A DNA stretch of 64,000 bases from an uncultured delta proteobacterium (GCA_963785235.1 CAWAUM010000001.1:768001-832000), one strand, 5' to 3'. Numbered from the stretch's first letter, positions 5,815 through 64,000 are shown. Notes: generated by a model not told the origin, from the sequence alone. Numbers and translations are program-made.

Positions 5815-7341
5815 CTAAGATCTGTTTTTTATGAAGAACGGTGCATGATTCGACGTAAAGTACGGCGGGTCTCGCCTGATGATGCGGGAGATAACCGGGT
5901 GCCGTTTGAATTCTTTGTCCAGGAACTGCCTCACCTGGTTCCTGTCCCATCCCTTTGGATGGATGAAGCCCTGGTAGAGCGAGAGGTCGCCGTCAAAGAA
6001 ATCGTATGTTTGCAGATTGTCTATATCCGGTCCCCCCCGGGGGAGGTTGAAGATGGAGATATTGAGGAAGTCAATGGATCCGGCGTGCCTCGTTACATAA
6101 TCAAGGGTTTTGCGTGCGCATACCTCGTCTTCCACAGGGGTGCCGAACAGCAGGTACACGTACGTGGCAATGCCTGCATCATGGAGTGCGGCAAGGGCAC
6201 TGGCTGATTCGTCAAGGTTGATACCCTTGCCGAGTCCGTCAAGGATTTCCTGGTCACCTGACTCCAATCCGAGTTGGAGCATTATGCATCCGGATTTCCT
6301 GAGCGCCAGGCAGAAGTCCTTATCGGTCAAGTGATGCGTGATCCTGGCGAATCCGTACCAGGGCACGCCTGAATCATAATCAGTCATAGCCGTGAGCAGG
6401 CTGGGGCTCAAGGCATTATCCGTTATATGAATAAGGACCGGTGAATTTAATTGTGCCAATGCGCCAAGTTCTGTTGGAACAAGCCTTGCCGGGGTACAGG
6501 AATATGGGTTGCCCTCGGCCTTTTCAGGGCAAAAGGAGCACTTGCTCCAGTAACAGCCCGTGGATGTGCTGAAAGGGAGTACCCTTCCCGGAGAGAGGTA
6601 TCCGTTATGCCAGAACTCCGAGTAATCCGGCAGGGTATATCCCTCACAGCCTTCAAGGCCTGCAAGTGCCAGGATACGTTCTTCCCCCGGGCCTTCCACC
6701 AGTTCATCCACAAGTCCTTGAAAAGGGTCATGCCAGTCCGGTCTCTTCATCCATGAGGTGATGAGACCGCCACCGAGGATAATTTTCACGGTTTTGGTGA
6801 ATTGCCTGAGAAGGCCTATCATTGCAAAGGTGGTAAGGGCCTGGCTCAGATAGTTGAGTGAGAAGCCCACTATGCGAGGGTTATGTTCTTCCATGATGGA
6901 GGAAAGCCGCTGCCTGAAATATGGGTAGAACACATTCTCCTGCGGGTGTTCAGCTGAATGAATCAGGTCGGCGCTCCTGACCGGTGAGAGGGTTTCATGC
7001 TGAAAGTTCGTAAGGTTCACTTGTGTTGCACAGGCCTGTGAATTGACCTCAAGGATGCGGCTTATCTCCCTGACCGCCTTTGTATAGCGGCTGATGTTTT
7101 CAAATGCCGTGGCGTTTTTCAGGGAGGCCAGGTTCTCATCAAGGTGTAATGATGCCCGCCTGGTCCATGTATCCTCTATTATTGTTCCTTTTCTGTTGAG
7201 AAGGAACATAAGCCCTTCCATGTTCGCATCGATGATCAGGCACTGCCTGCCATGCGACTTCAAGGCTCCTGAGAGCTTTGCCAAGCCGGCAGGGGGTTCG
7301 CTCGGCCTTGATACAGGCGGGTGGATGAGCACAAGGTCCAT
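5815..7341 (-). CDS. B12-binding-domain radical SAM protein
   Basis: LIHPP...PPAGLA N-terminus, ILGG, CYWSKCSFC (CxxxCxxC), GLESG. Confidence 0.88.
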   Translation of the reverse strand: MDLVLIHPPVSRPSEPPAGLAKLSGALKSHGRQCLIIDANMEGLMFLLNRKGTIIEDTWTRRASLHLDENLASLKNATAFENISRYTKAVREISRILEVNSQACATQVNLTNFQHETLSPVRSADLIHSAEHPQENVFYPYFRQRLSSIMEEHNPRIVGFSLNYLSQALTTFAMIGLLRQFTKTVKIILGGGLITSWMKRPDWHDPFQGLVDELVEGPGEERILALAGLEGCEGYTLPDYSEFWHNGYLSPGRVLPFSTSTGCYWSKCSFCPEKAEGNPYSCTPARLVPTELGALAQLNSPVLIHITDNALSPSLLTAMTDYDSGVPWYGFARITHHLTDKDFCLALRKSGCIMLQLGLESGDQEILDGLGKGINLDESASALAALHDAGIATYVYLLFGTPVEDEVCARKTLDYVTRHAGSIDFLNISIFNLPRGGPDIDNLQTYDFFDGDLSLYQGFIHPKGWDRNQVRQFLDKEFKRHPVISRIIRRDPPYFTSNHAPFFIKNRS

Positions 7342-7464: not shown

Positions 7465-8298
7465 ATGGCGTGTATGGTTTATAAAAATAAGGGCTTCCTG
7501 GTATACTTGGTGTTCAGTGTCCTTCTTGCCCTGGCAGGTTGTTCTTCTTCAGGGTCGAGTGAAAACTCCTATAATGTCGATACAGGGCAAGATCCAATGG
7601 CCCTGAACTTTGTAACACTCTATTCCACCGTGTCCTCCATCACCGTCCATGTGGCCTATGAATTCGATGCAGCGCCGTTTACCGGGGCTTTCCCGGACGG
7701 CAGTCAATACTGGTCGGTGCTCGAGAATAATTTACATGCAATCTTCCTCGGCCGCATCATCGAACCTGAGCTCTCTGTCCCCCGGGATCTTGCCGGTATG
7801 GAGCAGATTCCGGATCAAAACCAGACATCCTGGACCACGGTTCAAGTATTCAATCTAGCGAAGAGCACATGGGACACCCCCCAGACATCGACCTCGGCTG
7901 AGTTCTATGTGCTGTTCTTGAATGGATACTTCAGTGACAAGGATGAGGTGAACAAGCAGGTAATCGGCATCTCAATTGTCGGGACCCCGGTTATTGCCGT
8001 TTTTAAAGATGCCATCAGGGAGTCCGGCTACACGGCCTTTTTTTACCGGATTATGGAGCAGACGACCCTTGTCCATGAGTTCGGGCATGCCGTGGGTCTG
8101 GTGAATAACGGTTTGCCCATGGTCTTTGACCACGAAGATACTGAACATATAAACCACTGCACGAATGAAGAGTGTGTCATGTATTGGCAGAATGACGGCA
8201 CCAGTCTCAATTTTTTTATTCAAAGAATTGTTAACTCTCCATCTGATGTCATATTCGGCCCGGAATGCCTGGATGATGCAAGCAGCTTTATGCCGTAG
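7465..8298 (+). CDS. Lipoprotein, zincin-like metallopeptidase
   Basis: Lipobox LALAGC; HEFGHAVGL motif followed by HC...CVMYW Met-turn-like segment. Confidence 0.75.
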   Translation: MACMVYKNKGFLVYLVFSVLLALAGCSSSGSSENSYNVDTGQDPMALNFVTLYSTVSSITVHVAYEFDAAPFTGAFPDGSQYWSVLENNLHAIFLGRIIEPELSVPRDLAGMEQIPDQNQTSWTTVQVFNLAKSTWDTPQTSTSAEFYVLFLNGYFSDKDEVNKQVIGISIVGTPVIAVFKDAIRESGYTAFFYRIMEQTTLVHEFGHAVGLVNNGLPMVFDHEDTEHINHCTNEECVMYWQNDGTSLNFFIQRIVNSPSDVIFGPECLDDASSFMP

Positions 8299-8343
8299 GC
8301 CACATGAAGTATTAATAAATTCTATCAATTGCAGAACCTGGGA

Positions 8344-10035
8344 TTAATCAGGCCTGTTCCCTTGCAGTAGTTCCCAGTCCCTGATGGTTCTATATGCATC
8401 TTGGTGGGACAAGGCTGAACTGAGCATCTCCATGAGCTGCCTGTCCTGTGCGGCTTTACTGGCAAGGGCAAGGATCCGGATCTGTAAATCAGGATCTTCC
8501 ATGGGTGAAAGGATGAGGAAGACACCCTCAATGGGCTTATCCGTCTTTAAGTCGGATACCCCTTTGTGGGTGAGCCCGAGCACGAGACATGCCCGTTCGA
8601 GACCCTCTATCCTTGCATGGGGGAAGGCAACCCCTTCGTTGAAAAAGGTTGATCCCTGGTTTTCTCTTTCCAGGATGGCAGAAAGGTATTTCAGGCTTTG
8701 ATGACCATGGTTTGTGCATTGTGAGGCAATCTCAGTGAGCCTTTGCAGCAGAACATCCCGAGGAACCGGTTCTTTCCAGATTACGATACCCTCCTGTGCT
8801 AAAAAACTGCTTAATGTCATCCGGCCTTTGTCTTGATAAGGATCATAAGAAGATGCCGGCCTCTGAAATGCAGCATTAGCATCAAATGAAGCAGCGGTTA
8901 CCTGCTTGGATGTCTTGGTATCCAGAACAACGAGCGTGACCCCTCGTGCCTGGCTGATAAGGCTTTCTGCGATGCTCTTTTTGCCAAAAAGCCTTTTCCA
9001 TAGAGGAATTGTATTGGGACTGCCAATGATGATGTGGCCGACCCGATATTCTTTGGCAAACTGAAGGATTGTACTGACGATGTCCTCGCCCTTGAAGGTG
9101 AAGACTATTGCACCGAGCTGCTTGGCAAGGGTGAGTGTGTCGGAGAGCAGGCGTTGAATTCCGGCATCGATAACCGTAGGTTCTTCCGATGGTGTCTGGA
9201 CATAAACTGCATACCAGTTCCGGTTAAGCCTTCCTGCCACCCGGGATGCATATCTCAGGAGTCTTTCGCTGTTAGGTCCCCTGGAACTGAGGCATACCAT
9301 GATCTGGTCAGGGGCTGAATCCATGTCTTCTTCCTGGTTGTCCCGGGATCGCAGGTCGATTTGTGAAGCCAGTTCGCGCAGTGTGAGTTCCCTAAGCTGA
9401 GTGAGGTTGGATTTCTTGAAGAAATTGGCAAAGGCCGTCTCTATGCGGTCTTTTGGATAGATCTTGCCCTCCATCAGCCGGTCGTTCAGGTCTTCGGTGG
9501 TAACATCGACATTCACTATCTGGTCTGCATCGCTCAAAACGGAATCAGGGAGTCGTTCCGTTACCTTTACCCCTGATGCCTTCTCAACGATATCGTAGAG
9601 GCTCTCCAGGTGCTGGATGTTCAGGGTCGTGATGACATGGATCCCCTGGGCGAGGATATCCTGGACATCCTGGTAGCGTTTGGGGTTCGGGCTCCCTGGA
9701 GCGTTCGTATGGGCAAGCTCGTCAATGAGCACGATATGGGGCCTGCGTTCGATAATGGCCTCAAGATCCATTTCTTCAAGGACGATACCTCGATATTCCC
9801 GGCGTCTCCTGGGGATTATATCCAGACCTTCCAGCAGGCTGGTTGTATCCGGCCGGCCATGAGTCTCCACCAGACCCACCACCACATCGATACCCTCGGC
9901 CTTCAGACGATGCGCCTCCTGGAGCATCGCATAGGTCTTCCCGACACCTGCTGCATACCCGAGGTATACCTTGAGGCGTCCCCGCTGGGAGAGGCGGATC
10001 ATCCGGAGAAAGTCATCGGTCCTGTCTTGTGCCAT
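8344..10035 (-). CDS. kdpD: Kinase-less KdpD: KdpD sensor domain + Usp domain + PTS EIIA domain
   Basis: GRLKVYLGYAAGVGKTYAML, VETHGR, DELAHTN; Usp region IMVCLSS...; EIIA motif ILERENQGSTFFNEGVAFPHAR; no TM helices or HisKA domain. Confidence 0.88.
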   Translation of the reverse strand: MAQDRTDDFLRMIRLSQRGRLKVYLGYAAGVGKTYAMLQEAHRLKAEGIDVVVGLVETHGRPDTTSLLEGLDIIPRRRREYRGIVLEEMDLEAIIERRPHIVLIDELAHTNAPGSPNPKRYQDVQDILAQGIHVITTLNIQHLESLYDIVEKASGVKVTERLPDSVLSDADQIVNVDVTTEDLNDRLMEGKIYPKDRIETAFANFFKKSNLTQLRELTLRELASQIDLRSRDNQEEDMDSAPDQIMVCLSSRGPNSERLLRYASRVAGRLNRNWYAVYVQTPSEEPTVIDAGIQRLLSDTLTLAKQLGAIVFTFKGEDIVSTILQFAKEYRVGHIIIGSPNTIPLWKRLFGKKSIAESLISQARGVTLVVLDTKTSKQVTAASFDANAAFQRPASSYDPYQDKGRMTLSSFLAQEGIVIWKEPVPRDVLLQRLTEIASQCTNHGHQSLKYLSAILERENQGSTFFNEGVAFPHARIEGLERACLVLGLTHKGVSDLKTDKPIEGVFLILSPMEDPDLQIRILALASKAAQDRQLMEMLSSALSHQDAYRTIRDWELLQGNRPD

Positions 10036-52010: not shown

Positions 52011-53088
52011 ATGAATAAAGACACCACCTACATGAACGAGGCCATTGCCCTTGCAAGGCAAGCTATCGGCAGGACCGCACCCAACCCCAGTGTCGGGTGC
52101 CCTAGTTGTGAAAGACGGCCACATTGTAGGCAGGGGATTCCATCCCAAGGCAGGCAAACCCCATGCCGAGGTCTATGCATTGGAGGAAGCAGGTGATAAA
52201 GCCCGGGGCGCATCGCTCTATGTGACCCTGGAGCCCTGCAACCATTTTGGAAAAACACCGCCCTGCACGGAGGCTATCATAAAGGCAGGCATCTCTCGTG
52301 TAGTAGCGGGAACCCTTGACCCGAATCCCATTGTAGCGGGCAAGGGGATAGAACGGCTCAAGGAAGCAGGCATCATGGTCGATGTGGGTATATGCGAAGA
52401 GAAATGCAATGACCTTATCGAGTGGTATGCCTTCTGGCTCAAGGTCGGCCGGCCGTATGTCATACTGAAGGCCGCCATCACCCTGGATGGTTGTGTCGCC
52501 ACCACAACAGGTGATTCCCAGTGGATCAGCTCGGAGGAATCCAGGCATTATGTGCATGAATTGAGAAACCAGGTGGACGGACTTATAGTGGGCATCGGCA
52601 CAGTGCTTAAGGACGACCCGCTGCTTACCTGCCGCATGGAGGGAGGCCGGGACCCCATGCGGATCATCCTGGACCCGCAACTACATATATCCCCAGGGTG
52701 CGAAGTGCCTGGGCCATGGCTCGCTCGTGTTTACCACCAAATCACCGGCTGCCGGGCAGGGAATAATTGAGCACGGCACGGAAACCGTGCAGATGGAGAC
52801 AGATGCCTCTGGCCTGCTTCCCTGGGCCTCAGTGCTTGAACATCTCGGGAAGATGGGCCTCCACTGTGTCATGGTGGAGGGCGGCAGCGGGGTTTACTCG
52901 AGTCTGCTGAAAAGCGGACTTGTGGACAGGCTGCTCTTTTTCATCGCACCCAGGATCCTTGGCGGAGGCTTGCCCTTGGTAGACTGGGGCTCTCCTGAGC
53001 AGGATTGCGGATTCCTTGAAGATCGTGATAACAAAGGTTAACCTTATCAGGCGGGGATATCCTCGTGGAAGGTACACTGGGGGAATAA
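52011..53088 (+). CDS. ribD: Riboflavin deaminase/reductase (several apparent frameshifts)
   Basis: PNPSVG, HAE, TLEPCNH..TPPC, SQWIS, DDPLLT, VEGG. Confidence 0.92.
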
Positions 53089-55891: not shown

Positions 55892-56077
55892 TAAACCAAG
55901 ATGTTGCGCTTAAGATGAGTAAAAAAAACTTGATCCGTTAAAAACCTCAATCTTGCAGCCTTTGCGGGATAATAATTTTCTCGGTCCTTTAGGCTGCAAG
56001 ATTGAGGTTTTTAACGGACCTGTTTTAAAAATAATCCAAGGTAACTATACGTTTTATACTAATCCGAAATCCGGGTA
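55892..56077. repeat. Dispersed element copy 3 (inverted) with hairpin 55934-56018
   Basis: Reverse complement aligns with 5595-5780 over the hairpin and both flanks. Confidence 0.88.
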
Positions 56078-56784
56078 CTACTTGATAAGCCCCTGTACCT
56101 TGGCGCGTTCTACAATGATTCCGCGTTGCTTGCTGCCGGTAATATCGAGCGTACGGGCCTGGACCAGGGTAAGGTCTATGCGGTCGAGCAGGGAATTCGT
56201 GATGTGAACCTCCTCCATAGACAGCCCCGGCCAGGGAAGTAAGCGAGAGGTTCGACTTGTTCAGCGAGGTGCGCACGATATAGGAAAGCCCGAAATTTGC
56301 TTCCGTAAGGTCACATTCGTCAAGGGTGCAGTTTTCTATGAGGCAGAAGAGGAACTTCGCCTGCTGCAGTTGGGCGCCTGTGAGGTCGAGGTTCTTGAAG
56401 GTGGAGTGGATGAAGGTTGCCCCTGAAAGCTTTGTCTTTCGAAGCTCTTTGTCTACGATGGTGACACGGATGAGATGGCTGTTCATAAAGGCCACCCTGC
56501 TCAGGGTGCATGTGCTGAAATCAACATCATGAATCGTCACATCCGAAAGGTGGGCGCCCGAGAGATTCGTGTTCTTGAAGATCGTACCTTCAAGCTTTGT
56601 CCTCTCCAGGTGAGACTCCTCCAGGTTGGTATCGGTAAGGTTCGCCTTGCTCAAGATCCGAGCCCCTCAGATTGGCACCACCCAGGTCCAGGCCCGACAG
56701 GTCGAGCCCCTTGAGGTATTCTCCCTCAACGGGATAACCCATGGATATTTTCTCAAAGAGTTTGTCTCTGTCAAACATGTTCAT
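56078..56784 (-). CDS. Pentapeptide repeat protein (apparent frameshifts near 56650 and 56215)
   Basis: LDLSG/ANLRG/ANLTD/TNLSG repeats; frame-corrected end ...KVQGLIK*. Confidence 0.8.
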
Positions 56785-58208
56785 TCGCCGGACTCCAGGA
56801 TTTTCTTCACCTCAGGGGCCATGGTGAACTCGGACTCTTTGATCTCTCCGTCCTTCAGATAGAAATGCACCCCGGATTTGGTACCTGTAATTGTCATACT
56901 CGTCATGCCGATGTTGATATCCGTCTGATCGTATACCGTACCCTCGATGTAGATGTTGCCCTGGTGGGTCTGGTGGATTTTTTCTACGATCTCGATGATT
57001 TTTGCATTCTGTTCGTTGAGTATCCTGCGAATTGTCCCCATGCCGTCTAAGATCTTGTTATACAGGGCTTCCTGCTGGCGGCTCAGTTCGCTGGTGGCTT
57101 TCAATACCCTCAATTTCGCCAGGGAAGACTGGAATCTGATAAATTCCTGGATCCTTTCCAAGATCTCTTCCTTCATCTGCTGCTGTTCACGGTGAAGGAC
57201 CGGGCTGCGCCCGATACTGAGCACTGTCTTTTCATCGGCAGTCTCCTGGCCGGCAGTGTGGCAATAGACGCAGCTGTCGGAGGATACCTGGCTTGTTGTG
57301 ATGAACCCGTTCGGGCTTTTAATAATTACCGGACCAATGGCAGAGACCAGGCTGTTGCGGATATAGCCCTCAACCACGATCTCTTTGTCCGATCTCACAT
57401 GGGCATCCTGGATGAACTTGGCATGGATCATGCCCTTTGCGGTTATTATAGCCTCTTCCTGGCCCATAATGCCGCCGGCGATTTTGATGTTTCCTCCGGC
57501 CTCCAGCACCACCTTACCCACCGTAGTGGCGATAGTGATATCTTCGGCGGCGTGGATTTCATAGCCGTCACCAACCTCTCCCTGGACTACGACAGACCCG
57601 TTGAACCGGATGTTGCCTACAGAGGCATCCACATCATGCACCACATAGGATGGTTCCACATTCACGGCATTTTCCAGCCAGACCACCATTCCATCAATGG
57701 CGGCAAATATCTGGTTCCTGTCGGCCGAGTAGGTCACGTTCTTTGCGCCTGGAAGTTTTGCATTTACCCCCGGTTTGCCGGGGATCTCTTCGCCCTTCAC
57801 GTTCATGCCGGGCTTGCCCGGCTGTTGATTGATAAGTTCGCAAAGTGCATCACCCTTCTTCACGTTCTGGATAAGATGCAGGTCTTTCAGGTTCACCTTG
57901 CCGGAGGCATCTTCTTTGATGGTCGCCTTTGCACGGCTGGTGTCGAAGTGAAATTTGATATAACCGTCTTTCCCTTGTTCAGGTCCCTGTCCCCTGGCAA
58001 TGACTACCCACTGGTTTATGGCCTTATCCTTGACGATCTGATCGACTACCCCGGGTATAAGTCCGAAGGTGATCCCCTCGTTATTGATGGCCGCAAGAAG
58101 GTCTTCAACCGTGACGTTGGCCGTTTCGGGCGATGAAGTCACGACCTGCAAGGATGCACTCAGTCCTCCCTCGGTAATGTTGAACGCTACAGAATAATCC
58201 TTATCCAT
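56781..58208 (-). CDS. FapA / DUF342 family protein
   Basis: GITFG, IARG..P..GKDG, VKKGD, DVDASVGNIRFNGSVVVQG. Confidence 0.88.
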   Translation of the reverse strand: MDKDYSVAFNITEGGLSASLQVVTSSPETANVTVEDLLAAINNEGITFGLIPGVVDQIVKDKAINQWVVIARGQGPEQGKDGYIKFHFDTSRAKATIKEDASGKVNLKDLHLIQNVKKGDALCELINQQPGKPGMNVKGEEIPGKPGVNAKLPGAKNVTYSADRNQIFAAIDGMVVWLENAVNVEPSYVVHDVDASVGNIRFNGSVVVQGEVGDGYEIHAAEDITIATTVGKVVLEAGGNIKIAGGIMGQEEAIITAKGMIHAKFIQDAHVRSDKEIVVEGYIRNSLVSAIGPVIIKSPNGFITTSQVSSDSCVYCHTAGQETADEKTVLSIGRSPVLHREQQQMKEEILERIQEFIRFQSSLAKLRVLKATSELSRQQEALYNKILDGMGTIRRILNEQNAKIIEIVEKIHQTHQGNIYIEGTVYDQTDINIGMTSMTITGTKSGVHFYLKDGEIKESEFTMAPEVKKILESGE

Positions 58209-58377
58209 TAATGATGAACTCGGCTTTTTATCCTGAAAACTTAAAAAATAGTGAGGTGATATCCTAAGGGTAAATCTCCTCCCGAAAGATTGCAGACAGT
58301 CCTTCTTTTTTCTTGACTGGCAGGTATACGTCCCGTACTTGAAATGCGAGGTATACACTACAAGGATGAGGTGTAAG

Positions 58378-59037
58378 ATGAATGTCCGCGATATTGACGC
58401 CCTTGCCATCAAGGGATTCCTTGATGCAAAGGAGGGTAAGGCTCTCTACGGGCTCGCCCTTGGTGCAAGCTCACGCGGGCCTGTGCTCGAAATCGGAGGT
58501 TACTGCGGGAAATCAACCCTTTACCTGGGCCTTGCATGCAAAAAGAACAACGGCATCCTGTATTCCATTGACCATCACAGGGGTTCTGAGGAACAGCAGC
58601 CGGGCCAGGAGTTTTTCGACCCCGAGCTCTTCGACGACAGAGAAGGGAAGATGGACACCTTCCGGACCTTTCGCAGGACCATCGAGCTCTCAGGCCTGTC
58701 GGATACGGTGGTGCCCATGGTGACCACCTCTGCTGTGGCGGCACGCATGTGGTCCACACCCCTTTCCATGGTCTTTATCGATGGCTCTCACACCTATCCG
58801 GGGGCCTTCTCGGATTATGTCTCGTGGTCACCGCTCCTTTTGAGCGGCGGCATCCTGGCTATCCACGATATCTTTGAAGACCCGGCCGCAGGCGGCCAGG
58901 CGCCTCACTATATCTATAAACTGGCGCTGGACTCAGGTTTGTATGAGGAGCTGCCCATGGTCAAGACCCTTGGGGTGTTGAAGAGGCGCAGGCCTGTAGA
59001 TATACCCAAGGAGCTCTTTTCAAAACGCGATTGGTAG
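58378..59037 (+). CDS. Class I SAM O-methyltransferase (Methyltransf_24), mycobacterial MeT1-like
   Basis: KGFL...EG..LY, EIGGYCGKS, DHHRGSEEQQPG, FIDGSH, IHDIF.DP..GGQAP. Confidence 0.85.
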   Translation: MNVRDIDALAIKGFLDAKEGKALYGLALGASSRGPVLEIGGYCGKSTLYLGLACKKNNGILYSIDHHRGSEEQQPGQEFFDPELFDDREGKMDTFRTFRRTIELSGLSDTVVPMVTTSAVAARMWSTPLSMVFIDGSHTYPGAFSDYVSWSPLLLSGGILAIHDIFEDPAAGGQAPHYIYKLALDSGLYEELPMVKTLGVLKRRRPVDIPKELFSKRDW

Positions 59038-60612
59038 GGTGTCCGTTTCCTTGTTATGGGTCCAGTAGTAGCGGTATGATCCGTTCATCAGCTCAGCCTT
59101 GATATAGCCGGCAGCAAAGTAGCCCGTAAGAACCTTGGAGGTAAAAGTTCTGTCCGTGCCGGTCTTCTTTGCAAGCGAATCCGCCAGGAGCTCAATGGGG
59201 TGCGAGTCCTCCTCGTTCCTGCAGGGGCTTTCCTCGATAAGGTCTTCGGAGAGGATTCTGTAGACGAGTTTCAGTTTGCGGTTGCCCTCAATAAGGAGAT
59301 ACTCGTTGTCGGTGCAGGTGCCGTCCTTGTGGTGCTGTAGCATGTCTTCCCAGATTTCATCGTTGACCCGGTCATATTCCGCCACAAAGGCCGTCATCTC
59401 TTCAGGGCTCAATTGCGAAGTCTTCACGATGGGAGAGTTGGCATCGTACAGTCTCCAGTTGTCGGTGAGTATCTCGATGTCATAGTTTTCCAGCTCTTCA
59501 CGGACCGTGGTGCCCGGAAAGGGTGAGAAGAAATGGTAGCCGTAGGCGATATCCAGCTCAAGGGCGAAACGCTGCGTCTCCTGGAGGGTTTCCCTTGTCT
59601 CGCCGGGGAGCCCCACCATGAAGGAGGCATGTGGGAGGATGTCGGCCTCTTTGCAGCATTGCACGGCCTTTCGTGCCTGCTCCAAGGTGATGCCCTTGCG
59701 GATCCTCTTGAGCATCTCAGGGTTGCCCGACTCGATCCCGAAACTTACGCAATCGCAGCCGACCTCCCGCATGATCGTGAGTGTCTCCAGGTCCACGGTA
59801 TTGACCCTGGCGAAAGCGCTCCAGCCAAAGGTTACACCCCTGCGCCTTATCTCGTCGCAGAGCTCTTTGACCCGTGCCTTGTTGGCCGTGAACAGGTCAT
59901 CGGCAACATTGATCCGGGTGAATCCCATTGCAAGGAGCTGCTCGATCTCGTCCACTACCAGTTTGGGGTTCCTGAAGCGGCCCTTGAAGCCGACCATGCG
60001 CCTGCCAAGACAGAAGATGCACTTGTTGGGGCAGCCCCGGCTCGTAATGATGCTCACCGGGTATCCCAGTGCCTGATAGCGGGATATGGGCAGCAGATGC
60101 CTGGCAGGCATGGGCAGGCTGTCGAGGTCATCAATGAGCTCGCGGGCTTCGGTGATAACGATTTCATCTCCATCCTTAAAGGCAATGCCCTTGATGCCGT
60201 GCCATGCCTTCCTATCATCCAGGACCGCGATGAGCTCCATTAAGGTCTGCTCGCCTTCACCCATGACGATGAGGTCAAGCTCGGGGCAGGTTTTGAACGA
60301 ACCGTGGGTCTCAAAGGAGACGTGAGGTCCGCCCATCATGGTGATGATCCCGGGACGGAGCCTTTTGGCATCCTTGATGATACGCTCGGCCTGGTGGTGA
60401 TTCATGGTGACCGAAGACGCACCCACCACATCGGGCTTGAATGAGTCAAGTATCTTTGAGAGCTTTTCAGGTGAATACTTGCTTACGATAAAGTCGAAGA
60501 TGCGAACGGTTGCGCCTGCGGCCTCGCAGGCCGCTGCTGCATAAGTAAGGCCCAGCGGCGGGGATGGGGCCTCTTCCAATGGATAGGGTGTGGCGATAAG
60601 TGCGATTCTCAT
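59020..60612 (-). CDS. Cobalamin-dependent radical SAM enzyme
   Basis: PPLGL, GGPH, GEGE, SRGCPNKCIFC, DDLF, GIESG, PFPGT. Confidence 0.92.
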   Translation of the reverse strand: MRIALIATPYPLEEAPSPPLGLTYAAAACEAAGATVRIFDFIVSKYSPEKLSKILDSFKPDVVGASSVTMNHHQAERIIKDAKRLRPGIITMMGGPHVSFETHGSFKTCPELDLIVMGEGEQTLMELIAVLDDRKAWHGIKGIAFKDGDEIVITEARELIDDLDSLPMPARHLLPISRYQALGYPVSIITSRGCPNKCIFCLGRRMVGFKGRFRNPKLVVDEIEQLLAMGFTRINVADDLFTANKARVKELCDEIRRRGVTFGWSAFARVNTVDLETLTIMREVGCDCVSFGIESGNPEMLKRIRKGITLEQARKAVQCCKEADILPHASFMVGLPGETRETLQETQRFALELDIAYGYHFFSPFPGTTVREELENYDIEILTDNWRLYDANSPIVKTSQLSPEEMTAFVAEYDRVNDEIWEDMLQHHKDGTCTDNEYLLIEGNRKLKLVYRILSEDLIEESPCRNEEDSHPIELLADSLAKKTGTDRTFTSKVLTGYFAAGYIKAELMNGSYRYYWTHNKETDTLPIAF

Positions 60613-60621
60613 GTATGTCCT

Positions 60622-61343
60622 TTAGTTGTATTTTCCGGGAAAGAGAATGGATCTCATCCAGTGCAGAAGTGTGTTGCCCTGGAGCAGGTCCTTGTCGATA
60701 ATGATGAAGTCCTTGGCGAGCTTCTTGGGGTCTGCGTACCACTGGCCCCGTGTTCTCATGGGCTCTTTCGGGTCAAGTTCTTTTATTACCGTTGCCGGGT
60801 TGCCCGCTGCAATGACATTGGCAGGGATATCCCGTGTGACCACGGACCCAGCGCCTATATGCTGTTGTCGCCGATGGTGACCCCTTTGCAGACAATGGAG
60901 TTGTCGCCCAGCCAGACATTGTTGCCTATGACGATTGGGCCGGTGGCGCCGATGTAGTCTGCGCGGTCATAGATGCCGTGCCAGTCGGAGTCGGTGATGT
61001 AGACGTTGCTGGCCATCATGCAGCTGTCGCCCAAGGTGATGCCGGTGGCTGCACTCATCCGCACGCCGGGACAGATGAGGCTGTACTTGCCGATTTTGAT
61101 GAATCCGTCACCTTTTTCCCTGCCCCATACGGTAAGCCGCACCCGGCGGTCCGGGGTGGAAATCACGGTGGCGAAGTCGCCTAGATCGACGGGCCAGCCG
61201 AAGACCTGGACATGCCAAGGCTTCATGAAGGTGCAGCCCTTACCCAGGTGCTGGAACTGGGGCCTCAGGAAGTGTTCCACGTACCACTTGCGGAAATTGA
61301 GGTCGAGCCTCTTGAGGTAATATGGCCGGTAATCCTTTCGCAA
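60622..61343 (-). CDS. Hexapeptide-repeat O-acyltransferase (apparent frameshift near 60857)
   Basis: ITDSDWH, PIVIGNNVWLG, KGVTIG, then VVTRDIP...AAGNPA in the next frame; TTG start. Confidence 0.88.
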
Positions 61344-61347
61344 GGTT

Positions 61348-62481
61348 TTAGGCCCTCATATCCATGGCGTCCGAATAGAACGCCTTCTTGATGCTGAAGA
61401 TGGGATGGTGCTTTTTGAGAAAGCGGTACATGTGGGATTTGGCGCTTTCGCCTGCTGCCCAGAATGAGTGGTTGAAGAGCTGGGACGCCGGGGTGATGTG
61501 GTAGATGGCGTCCGTGGCCATCATGACTGCCGAGTTTGTCCAGGTGAGCTTCTCTTCAGGCCAGATGACCATGTCCGGGAAGGTGAAGCCGCACCAGAAG
61601 GTGCCGTTGTCGTGTTTCTTGTTCTTGATCCAGCTCAGGACGGTGGCAGCCTTTTCGATTTCGCCCATGGCGGCCAGCGTCAGGATGAGCTCGGAGGTCT
61701 CGGCAACGGTAACCCATGGGTTGTCGGAGACACACCGTGTGCCGAGTCCTTCCACCATGAACTTGTTCCAGAACTTGTCGATGCGCTTCTTTGCCTCGCC
61801 CCCGGTAACAGCGCCACAGAGTACGGGATAAAACCAGTCCATGGAAAAGCGTGCCTTGGTGCGGTCAAAGAGGTGGGGACGGTAGCGCAGCGCATCGCCC
61901 AGCCTCTGCAGTGCCGATTGCCACGTGGGTCTGCTCTCTCCGAGCAGCAGGGCGAGGACGAGCGCGCACTTGAGGCTCATGAAGATGGAGCTGCATCCGG
62001 TGAGCAGTGCATTCGGGTCTTTGATTCCCAGGTAGTTCCTGGCCCAGTAGATCTCGCCGCCCGGAGCCTGGAGGTCCACGGCATAGTCGATCCCGGCAGA
62101 GACGGTGGGCCAGATATATTCGAGGAACGGCCTGTCCTGGGTGATGAGATAGTGGTGGAATACACCCACTGCGATGTATGACGACATATTGGATTCTTTT
62201 GTGAGGTCTTCGGGTATGCCGTTTATATAGGATGAGTGCCAGCTGCCGTCTTCAAGCTGAATGGATGCAAGCCATTCAAAGGCCTTGCGGGCCTCTTCGT
62301 AGTAGCCGCCGATGGTCAGCCCGATGGCCGCTTCCACATGGTCCCACGGGTCGGTCTTTCCCCCATCGTGCCAGGGGATCTCGCCTGTCGACCTCTGCTC
62401 TTTGGCTATGGATGAGGCCAGGGTCTCGATATCGATGGGCAGGTCCTGCTTTGAAATGGAAGGGGAAGAGTCATGTTCCAT
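61348..62481 (-). CDS. Prenyltransferase/squalene-cyclase-fold protein; probable MmpH-like glycoside hydrolase
   Basis: GEIPW..GG..DPWDHVE, Q..DGSW, LLTGCSS, FSMDWFYP, RCV...PWVTVAE. Confidence 0.75.
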   Translation of the reverse strand: MEHDSSPSISKQDLPIDIETLASSIAKEQRSTGEIPWHDGGKTDPWDHVEAAIGLTIGGYYEEARKAFEWLASIQLEDGSWHSSYINGIPEDLTKESNMSSYIAVGVFHHYLITQDRPFLEYIWPTVSAGIDYAVDLQAPGGEIYWARNYLGIKDPNALLTGCSSIFMSLKCALVLALLLGESRPTWQSALQRLGDALRYRPHLFDRTKARFSMDWFYPVLCGAVTGGEAKKRIDKFWNKFMVEGLGTRCVSDNPWVTVAETSELILTLAAMGEIEKAATVLSWIKNKKHDNGTFWCGFTFPDMVIWPEEKLTWTNSAVMMATDAIYHITPASQLFNHSFWAAGESAKSHMYRFLKKHHPIFSIKKAFYSDAMDMRA

Positions 62482-63197
62482 AGGAATCACCTTTCTTCAA
62501 ATAAAGTACAATGCTCTTGGCAATGAGAGGATTCAAGAGCCTGTCCAAGGTCCTTGTCAGCAGGGGTTTCTTCATGATGTCCCAGACAAGGAACTTGTGA
62601 TAGAGCTTTACGGGCAAGGCATTGTCATTTTTATGGCCTGCCATGCACTTGATCCACCAGTAGGGGCTGTGCAGGGCATGTGCCCAGCCCATGTCAATAC
62701 AAGTAGCCCCTGCTCTGTGCAAAAGGCTGATGAGTTCATTCTTGCGGTAAATCCTTATATGGCCGCCCTCTTCATTGTGATAGGCCTCCGAGAGTGCCCA
62801 GCATATACGCTCGGGCAGATATCTCGGTACGCTCACTACCAGAGATTTCCCGGGTTTGAGTACCCGGATGATCTCTTTCATCGCCGAGGTATGGTCAGGG
62901 ATGTGTTCGAGCACCTCAGAGCAGATCACAATGTCGAAGGAGGCGTCTGTGAACGGGAGCCTGGTGACATCGCTCACCATAACGAGCGCTGCACCACCGC
63001 CGTCTTCGCCCTCGTGCCGCATCATCTTCGTTGAGTTGTAGGGCCTTGAGTGCATCGTCCTTTTTCAGGTCGATCCCCACAACGCTCACCCCTTTGGCGC
63101 GGAAGGCTTCACTCAGATGGCGTCCGGCGCCGCATCCGGCATCGAGGACCTTTGTCCCGGGGCTAAGTTCGAGTTTACTGAAGTCAACGGTGAGCAA
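62471..63197 (-). CDS. Class I SAM methyltransferase (apparent frameshift near 63035)
   Basis: MLTVDF..., VLDAGCGAGRH, SEVLEHI, PERICWALS..YH..EGGHIRIY, HALHSPYWW. Confidence 0.85.
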
Positions 63198-64000
63198 GGA
63201 TAGCCTCCCGGTAAACCTCCACCACCTGCCTGGCGGTATTGAGCCAGGTGAAGTTCTTTCTTGCCCGGTCGTATCCGGCCTCGGCAAGGCGCGTGCGTTT
63301 GCCCGGATTGTCCAGAAGATCAATGATGGCAGCCTCGAGGGCCTTGGCGTCACCCGGAGGGACCAGAACGCCTGTATCACCTACCACCTCGGGCAGGGCG
63401 CCTCCTGTGGTGCTTATGACCGGTACCTTGCAGGCCATGGCTTCGCCTGCAGGCAAACCGAAGCCCTCATAGATGGAGGGGACTACTGCCATGGTAGTCC
63501 TGGCATAGTAATGGGCGAATTCAGAGTCTTCAATGCGGCCGGTGAAGGTGATGTAGTCGTGTGCGTTCAGGTTTTTTACCAGCTTGTCGATGACGCCGTC
63601 TTTTTTGGGCGCTCCGATGACGGTTAAATGAACATCGCGGTTCTTCCTGATGGAGGCCACTGCTTCAATGAGGAAGCGCAGGCCCTTGAGCGGCGTGTCG
63701 GCGCTGTTGGTGACCATGATCTGATTGTCCAGCCTTTTCACGCCGGGCAGGGTATGGAAGATGTCCGTATTGATGCCGTTGGCGACCACCCTGAACTTCT
63801 CGCGGGGGATAGAGAAGGCTGAACTGATGTCGGTCTTTGATGCCTCGGATACTGTAATGATATGGGAAAGTCTCCCGTGAGACTCTTCCCTGCATGCTCA
63901 GGAAAGAATACCACCTGCGCACCTTCCATTTACGCCAGAAGACCTTTTCGGATTCAATCTCCACGTCACGGTCCACGGTGATGGGGTGGTGGATGGTAGC
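63184..64000 (-). CDS. GT4 glycosyltransferase, 3' part (5' end beyond the window; apparent indels near 63810-63880)
   Basis: TIHHPITVD, WYSFL, SADTPLKG, PSIYEGFGLPAGEAMAC. Confidence 0.88.

Follow-up and report, generated by a model that had tools for sequence, protein, structure and literature searches.

Methylmannose polysaccharides (MMPs) have so far been regarded as a curiosity of the non-tuberculous mycobacteria and a few of their relatives. MmpH (PDB 7QSJ) and ManT (PDB 7QSG) are among the enzymes of the pathway with solved structures (Maranha et al. 2023, PMC9883506). An acetylated MMP (AMMP) is attributed to Streptomyces griseus (Harris and Gray 1977, as cited in PMC9883506), and the one survey of distribution consulted deals with Actinobacteria only. 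A literature search found no paper on MMP genes outside the Actinobacteria, the supplementary species lists of PMC9883506 not being covered. The present analysis concerns a stretch of 64,000 nucleotides (nt), hereafter referred to as the window, from an uncultured delta proteobacterium (GCA_963785235.1, CAWAUM010000001.1:768001-832000), and within it the region 58378-64000, whose core genes are well supported by sequence comparison as orthologues of the mycobacterial MMP cluster, manT-pmeT3-mmpH with a convergent meT1. The host is an uncultured anaerobe, a relative of the sulfate reducers, known from a metagenome-assembled genome (MAG) of the Desulfobacterota. An earlier interpretation of this DNA, the sequence-only reading, had stated that such a system was undescribed in anaerobic Gram-negative bacteria, with which the outcome of the literature search agrees.

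The cluster consists of a minus-strand run of genes encoding a GT4 glycosyltransferase, an S-adenosylmethionine (SAM) methyltransferase, an (alpha/alpha)6 protein, a hexapeptide acyltransferase and a B12 radical SAM protein, in that order, and of a convergent Methyltransf_24 gene. Adjacent genes overlap or lie 4-9 nt apart, and the convergent pair (Methyltransf_24 and radical SAM) share 18 nt at their ends. This six-gene form is a variant of the MMP cluster with two tailoring genes inserted between mmpH and meT1. The explanation that accounts best for the observations as a whole, and that we consider likely, is that an orthologue of the MMP cluster has been joined by the two tailoring genes and that their products would together operate a pathway of the MMP type.

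The core genes were compared with PDB and with actinobacterial loci. The mmpH-like gene (61348-62490, minus strand, intact, with an alternative ATG start at 62481) encodes a protein of 380 residues that finds M. hassiacum MmpH (7QSJ) as its best match (E-value 1.3e-101, residues 10-340), the next match having an E-value of 0.3. The 219-residue product of the meT1-like gene (58378-59037, plus strand), a member of Methyltransf_24 (PF13578, E 3e-20), matches M. hassiacum MeT1 (6G7D/6G80/6H40; E 1.2e-52, residues 3-205), followed by a match at E 0.25. The manT-like gene (minus strand, 63184-64000 and on to ~64520) has its C-terminal two thirds in the window (Glycos_transf_1, E 5e-35) and was represented by the intact orthologue L003:5971-7308, which matches ManT (7QSG) at E 1.8e-103, with the next match at E 1e-26; L003 is a 90%-identical MAG locus that carries the label 'uncultured delta proteobacterium' and has each of the six open reading frames (ORFs) intact. 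The pmeT3-like gene (62471-63197, minus strand) begins with TTG at 63197, preceded by GGGAGG, and encodes a SAM methyltransferase of ~241 residues with Pfam Methyltransf_11/23/25 matches on both of its pieces. No structure of pMeT3 has been solved, and therefore actinobacterial loci were fetched for comparison by a short degenerate motif. In 11 of 11 such loci the matches of the L003 proteins are to four neighbouring genes, arranged as ManT, MeT3, MmpH and convergent MeT1, with identities of 41-44% for ManT, 44-50% for MeT3, 43-48% for MmpH and 43-48% for MeT1. Among 80 actinobacterial loci, 49 carry the full four-gene pattern, 27 are cut by the ends of the 8-kb loci and 4 have no MmpH match at the thresholds. 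The window's own sequences, compared with Mycolicibacterium agri, are 45% (MeT1), 48% (MmpH) and 37% (GT4 C-terminal piece) identical, and the two MeT3 pieces 54% (to M. agri MeT3 residues 1-47) and 50% (to residues 56-235). When the four M. agri proteins were searched against this genome, the best matches all fell within C1:826408-832411, with runners-up at 72 bits (ManT) and 50 bits (MeT3) and with no second match elsewhere in the genome for MmpH and MeT1 (MeT1 at E <= 1e-5).

The residues assigned to catalysis and substrate binding in MmpH and ManT are largely retained. In MmpH, E262 is described as the catalytic base, D47 and D50 as candidates for the acid, and W49, F102, T163, M215, Y219 and E265 as subsite residues (PMC9883506, the source of the residue numbers used here for MmpH and ManT). 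In the alignments of the PDB search, eight of the nine listed active-site residues are identical, namely D47, W49, D50, T163, M215, Y219, E262 and E265, which are D47, W49, D50, T164, M217, Y221, E264 and E267 in the present protein, and the ninth, F102, is conservatively replaced by M; D47, W49, D50, E264 and E267 are invariant among 11 MmpH homologues. The ManT orthologue of L003 keeps nine of ten residues (G15, H142, K240, D293, E313, G314, F315, L317 and E321), with a conservative change of L291 to I, and the matching stretches IHHPIT, TPLKG, IEDSE and YEGFGLPAGE are found in the window's own GT4 pieces. The motifs EIGGYCGKS, DHHRGSEEQQPG, HDIFEDPAAGGQAP, DPWDHVE and SMDWFYP occur in the translations of the window and line up with their counterparts in the solved M. 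hassiacum proteins.

None of the six proteins passes the cut-off of any NCBIfam model, and MmpH has no Pfam family above cut-off; in particular, no prenyltransferase or SQHop_cyclase match was found in the 380-residue protein, whose sole Pfam match is to TED_complement (20.8 bits, under cut-off). A terpene cyclase or prenyltransferase reading of this protein was ruled out, as it carries no DxDD and no Pfam repeats and matches MmpH at E 1e-101. The sequence-only reading had called it a protein of prenyltransferase fold, prenyltransferase being the usual database annotation of MmpH homologues, a label that stands for the resemblance in fold and falls for membership of the prenyltransferase/cyclase family; its further expectation, that a true cyclase would show DxDD, is answered by the finding of no D.DD in the sequence. 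Its central claim of a mycobacterial-type MMP gene set is upheld by the PDB matches, the pMeT3 identity, the gene order and the reciprocal best hits, the reciprocal comparison being one that it had itself proposed. The gene order, strands and domains that it gave are borne out by the ORFs and the Pfam search of the window, and all five of the motifs that it quoted were recovered in the translations. Its description of the gene set was accurate in layout; it overlooked frameshifts in three of the genes and gave the two extra genes no role.

The acetyltransferase gene (60622-61343, minus strand, in pieces 60855-61343 and 60622-60966) encodes a hexapeptide-repeat sugar O-acetyltransferase of ~240 residues (Pfam Hexapep). 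Its intact orthologue L003:9148-9870 matches the maltose, galactoside and polysialic-acid O-acetyltransferases at E 6e-20 to 5e-19, and its best NCBIfam match is WbbJ, under cut-off. The His of its 'WHGI' is aligned opposite the His of 'YHPI' in the maltose O-acetyltransferase 3SRT, which we take to be the catalytic residue of the hexapeptide O-acetyltransferases. The B12-binding radical SAM gene (59020-60612, minus strand) is intact and encodes 530 residues with a B12-binding domain (PF02310, E 4e-23) and a Radical_SAM domain (PF04055, E 2e-26); its CxxxCxxC cysteines, C194/C198/C201, are invariant across 20 orthologues. It belongs to no characterised subfamily (BchE, HpnJ, HpnR, PhpK, TokK/ThnK, CysS, MgmA and others). 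An AlphaFold model of the protein has a mean pLDDT of 83.8, and a Foldseek search of PDB with this model places AprD4, TsrM, MgmA, CysS, OxsB and TokK about equally (E 6e-21 to 6e-17, TM 0.54-0.63), no one reaction type being singled out; a look-up in the ESM Atlas returned generic 'B12-binding radical SAM' clusters only. Its reaction would be a cobalamin-dependent radical tailoring step, probably a C-methylation. The C-terminus (window 59020-59400) is predicted to form a helical bundle that ends in two helices and a beta-hairpin, an arrangement resembling a winged helix that might bind substrate, and no equivalent of this part is seen in the solved class B enzymes matched by sequence. At first look, 21 B12-binding radical SAM candidates were counted in the genome (G000), which thus encodes many such proteins.

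The association of the two additional genes with mmpH was examined in 90 distinct Desulfobacterota-type loci collected by MmpH and in 401 genomes sampled evenly across the phylum, and the figures that follow are counts among related genomes, which as kin are not independent. The hexapeptide gene (Hex) directly follows mmpH in 78 of the 90 loci, across many families; the complete six-gene cluster is found in 22, with 6 more cut or minus one gene, and mmpH-Hex is found with no radical SAM gene nearby in 49. MmpH is present in 52 of the 401 sampled genomes, 37 of which have a radical SAM homologue <= 4 kb from mmpH; conversely, 37 of the 39 genomes with a radical SAM protein >= 50% identical also have MmpH. 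No homologue of the hexapeptide or the radical SAM protein was found in any of the 80 actinobacterial loci, and the radical SAM gene is missing from a four-gene locus of the Pseudomonadales (L018). The absence of the radical SAM gene from the Pseudomonadales and actinobacterial loci would fit an oxygen-sensitive addition confined to anaerobes.

Within the class to which the window belongs, mmpH is carried by 48 of the 51 further genomes in its own family and by 0 of 70 in the sister family. At E <= 1e-30 the MmpH family amounts to 285 clusters in a set of 1.84 billion representatives. In a quick maximum-likelihood tree of 54 MmpH rows, an actinobacterial group together with a long-branched Pseudomonadales row splits from the Desulfobacterota-type group (SH-aLRT 98), and the window's MmpH is placed among MAGs labelled Desulfomonilia. 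A Hyphomicrobiales MAG (JBLMXM010000159.1, L013/L048) has an MmpH homologue 60% identical that the quick tree places inside the Desulfobacterota-type group; within 7-8 kb of its mmpH the other five genes are all absent, and gene transfer or a mis-binned contig could account for it. Some MmpH homologues form the C-terminal half of proteins of 520-740 residues (P0024, P0033, P0056, P0061; G192:C3:529092-530066), so that forms fused to a further N-terminal domain exist. In the Desulfobacterales the MMP-type genes are dispersed. Desulfosarcina widdelii PP31 (NZ_AP021875.1, L092), a cultured sulfate reducer, has homologues of all six genes at four chromosomal places, with mmpH-Hex at ~3.93 Mb, manT-meT3 at 6.517 Mb, meT1 at 6.614 Mb and the radical SAM homologue, 48% identical, at 5.806 Mb.

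By analogy with the characterised enzymes of M. hassiacum and M. smegmatis, a set of activities, a product and a role in lipid handling may be proposed for the cluster. The GT4 enzyme would lengthen alpha-(1->4)-oligomannosides using GDP-mannose, and a gene resembling those for mannose-1-phosphate guanylyltransferase is present in the genome (E 2e-83, under the equivalog cut-off). The Methyltransf_11-type enzyme (pMeT3) would 3-O-methylate the added mannoses and the Methyltransf_24 enzyme (MeT1) would cap the free reducing end through 1-O-methylation, while the (alpha/alpha)6 hydrolase (MmpH), as an alpha-(1->4)-endomannosidase, would cut mature chains to primers for new chains in a self-recycling manner. 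O-acetylation of the chain is the probable role of the hexapeptide enzyme, with the acetylated MMP of Streptomyces griseus as a parallel. A further, oxygen-sensitive modification would come from the cobalamin-type radical SAM enzyme, most likely, in our view, a C-methylation of the sugar or of a methyl/acetyl substituent. No transporter, exporter, flippase, polymerase, priming transferase or lipid-carrier gene was found within the cluster, and the peak hydropathy over 19 residues lies between 1.0 and 2.0 for each of the six proteins, with no membrane-type hydrophobic stretch. These absences fit a product that would be an oligosaccharide dissolved in the cytoplasm, and a 1-O-methyl cap requires a free reducing end. 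As proposed from the mycobacterial literature, the organism may produce a methylated polysaccharide that buffers acyl-CoAs.

The GT4, methyltransferase and acyltransferase genes, three of the six, are each split across two frames in the assembly, the reading frames of MmpH, radical SAM and MeT1 being intact. With L003 as the reference, the splits correspond to 1-nt indels at 60858 (acyltransferase, missing base), 63040 (methyltransferase, extra base) and 63874 (GT4, extra base) and to two further GT4 indels past the window end, at ~64192 and ~64311. Were these five indels real, the cluster would be a decaying set of pseudogenes and no polysaccharide would be made here. The nearest relative (L002, MmpH 97% identical) could be read in the same way, as it has no MeT3-like gene between GT4 and mmpH (L002 5692-5794) and its radical SAM gene is in two pieces in different frames (7634-9378), which may be real decay or a co-assembly artefact. 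Logan contigs from three DNA runs of three studies, 90-99% alike and perhaps from other populations, were a second source of comparison when aligned to the region, for which coordinates are those of locus L001 (G000:C1:826001-846000, which takes in the cluster and DNA past the window end). The in-frame form was found in all three runs at three places (L001 5040/41, 5872/74 and 6191/94) and in two of the three at the other two (L001 2858 and 6311); at 2858, in the acyltransferase, the closest run, X1, is without the corrected form, a point in favour of decay, and at 6311 the same run has no cover. Against decay, indels relative to L003 are similarly frequent outside the cluster, with 4 over ~5 kb downstream and 7 over 5.2 kb of contig C13, the cluster is free of in-frame stops and of larger deletions, three of its genes are intact as stated and mmpH is kept in 48 of the 51 family members. 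The general rate is ~1 such indel per kb in every region compared, and many ORFs of the genome are probably broken by consensus errors; ribD (window 52045-53041) and an acyl-CoA synthetase gene at L001 16838-19535 are both split as well, ribD over two frames. Because independent contigs carry the in-frame forms and similar indels occur outside the cluster, we hold it highly probable that the five frameshifts are consensus errors of the assembly rather than signs of decay, and a pseudogene cluster to be very improbable.

Besides the split genes and the run X1, several further points weigh against the MMP-type pathway with two tailoring steps. Identities of 41-50% to the characterised enzymes leave sugar and linkage unfixed, and the function of pMeT3 is only putative, mycobacteria included. 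All 29 NCBIfam matches of the radical SAM protein lie far under cut-off (the best, BchE, at 223 bits vs 481), and AprD4, its closest solved relative, is a diol dehydratase rather than a methylase. A search for CobS (PF02654) in the genome, which is 93% complete, gave no match, and the cobamide would need to come from salvage or from an undetected route. The acyl-CoA genes nearby are not conserved neighbours of the cluster, and the trace of RNA, two 151-nt contigs of the metatranscriptome X19 over the methyltransferase and the start of mmpH with 0 and 2 differences, could be DNA carry-over and is too little for a claim of expression. The same level of identity would allow the genes to make a related but different methylated glycan, differing in sugar, linkage or location, such as a surface or lipid-linked methylated mannan, all the more as GT-B enzymes have a fast-evolving acceptor-binding N-terminal domain and the acetyltransferase resembles the surface-polysaccharide enzymes WbbJ and WcaF and the polysialic-acid O-acetyltransferase. 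However, four specialised functions are retained jointly and in order, and an endo-hydrolase and a reducing-end 1-O-methyltransferase suit only a free, recycled oligosaccharide; D293, which reads the guanine of GDP-mannose, the mannosyl-binding loop and the MmpH subsite residues are kept; and neither a flippase, polymerase, ABC exporter or priming transferase gene in the cluster nor a membrane-type hydrophobic segment in its proteins points to the surface, so that a different glycan appears rather unlikely. The acetyltransferase and the radical SAM enzyme might, alternatively, be unrelated neighbours acting on some other substrate, as would agree with their absence from the 80 actinobacterial loci and from the Pseudomonadales locus, with the distance of the Desulfosarcina widdelii radical SAM homologue from the other genes and with the 49 of 90 loci in which mmpH-Hex is found away from any radical SAM gene. 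Their adjacency in many families (Hex directly after mmpH in 78 of 90 loci), the mutual association of radical SAM and mmpH (37 of 52 and 37 of 39 genomes) and the spacing of 4-9 nt on one strand in the window speak for a shared function, and coincidental neighbours are decidedly unlikely. An MMP cluster with two tailoring genes is the preferred explanation.

The surroundings of the cluster differ on its two sides. Synteny with close relatives stops directly upstream of GT4 (window ~64520-64900, equal to C1:832520-832900). The upstream DNA of L002, L003 and L005 matches contig C13:210204-215419 of the present genome, which holds glycine cleavage T, P1 and P2 genes and an ECF sigma factor gene, and that of L004, L006 and L007 matches yet another region. 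Upstream of GT4 here are a small membrane protein and a sigma-54 activator, in consequence of a rearrangement or a mis-join. A functional tie to the upstream acyl-CoA dehydrogenase, thiolase, SDR and acyl-CoA synthetase genes was rejected as conserved context, since the relatives differ there. The suggestion of the sequence-only reading that the cluster would fit the CoA/lipid genes elsewhere in the window is not sustained, as synteny breaks upstream of GT4 and that position is taken in close relatives by glycine-cleavage genes and an ECF sigma factor. Downstream of meT1 (window 56025-58412) lie genes for a FapA-family protein (543 residues) and a pentapeptide-repeat protein, followed by nusB and a riboflavin operon, an arrangement syntenic with the relatives.

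A complete MMP cluster in an uncultured anaerobe raises the question of the general function of these polymers, in lipid/acyl-CoA handling or in cold adaptation, as well as those of the age of the pathway and of the chemistry added by the acetyltransferase and the B12 radical SAM enzyme. The question can be tested directly in Desulfosarcina widdelii PP31, a cultured organism with homologues of all six genes. It is possible, if doubtful, that strict anaerobes of the Desulfobacterota make a hyper-modified glycan of the MMP type, that such glycans are a widespread cytoplasmic class in bacteria and that the polymer is a substrate of the acetyltransferase and of cobalamin radical SAM enzymes forming a new subfamily. 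Iterative C-methylation, in the manner of CysS and TokK, could in that case enlarge O-methyl or O-acetyl groups to bigger alkyl or acyl groups. If true, this would be without precedent as radical SAM tailoring of an intracellular polysaccharide, and would yield a hydrophobic helix tuned for the binding of lipid/acyl-CoA in fatty-acid-degrading anaerobes.

Among the described systems, the class B radical SAM enzymes (TokK, CysS, TsrM, MgmA, OxsB) and the sugar diol dehydratase AprD4 share with the window protein an N-terminal B12-binding Rossmann domain, the radical SAM core and the whole-chain fold; the window protein differs from them in its identity of 16-23%, in its context of a cytoplasmic polysaccharide cluster, unlike that of any of them, and, as compared with the solved class B enzymes, in the modelled C-terminal helical domain with a beta-hairpin (residues ~403-517), which appears distinct. 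The acetyltransferase resembles the Maa/LacA/WbbJ/NeuO-type family in its left-handed beta-helix hexapeptide repeats and in the aligned His of the catalytic region, whereas it lies under all NCBIfam equivalog cut-offs, has ~90 extra N-terminal residues that match nothing and is of a type paired with mmpH (78 of 90 Desulfobacterota-type loci). The AMMP of Streptomyces griseus offers a precedent for an O-acetylated MMP such as the sugar O-acetyltransferase of the cluster would give. For AMMP we know of no radical SAM step. The mycobacterial MMP cluster (M. hassiacum MHAS_04402-04405, M. smegmatis MSMEG_6481-6484) is the closest system, with the same four genes in the same order, a convergent meT1 and 41-50% identity. 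The present locus differs from it in the Desulfobacterota proteins by the changes of MmpH F102 to M and ManT L291 to I, in its host, an anaerobe represented by a Desulfobacterota MAG, and in carrying a hexapeptide acetyltransferase and a B12 radical SAM gene between mmpH and meT1.

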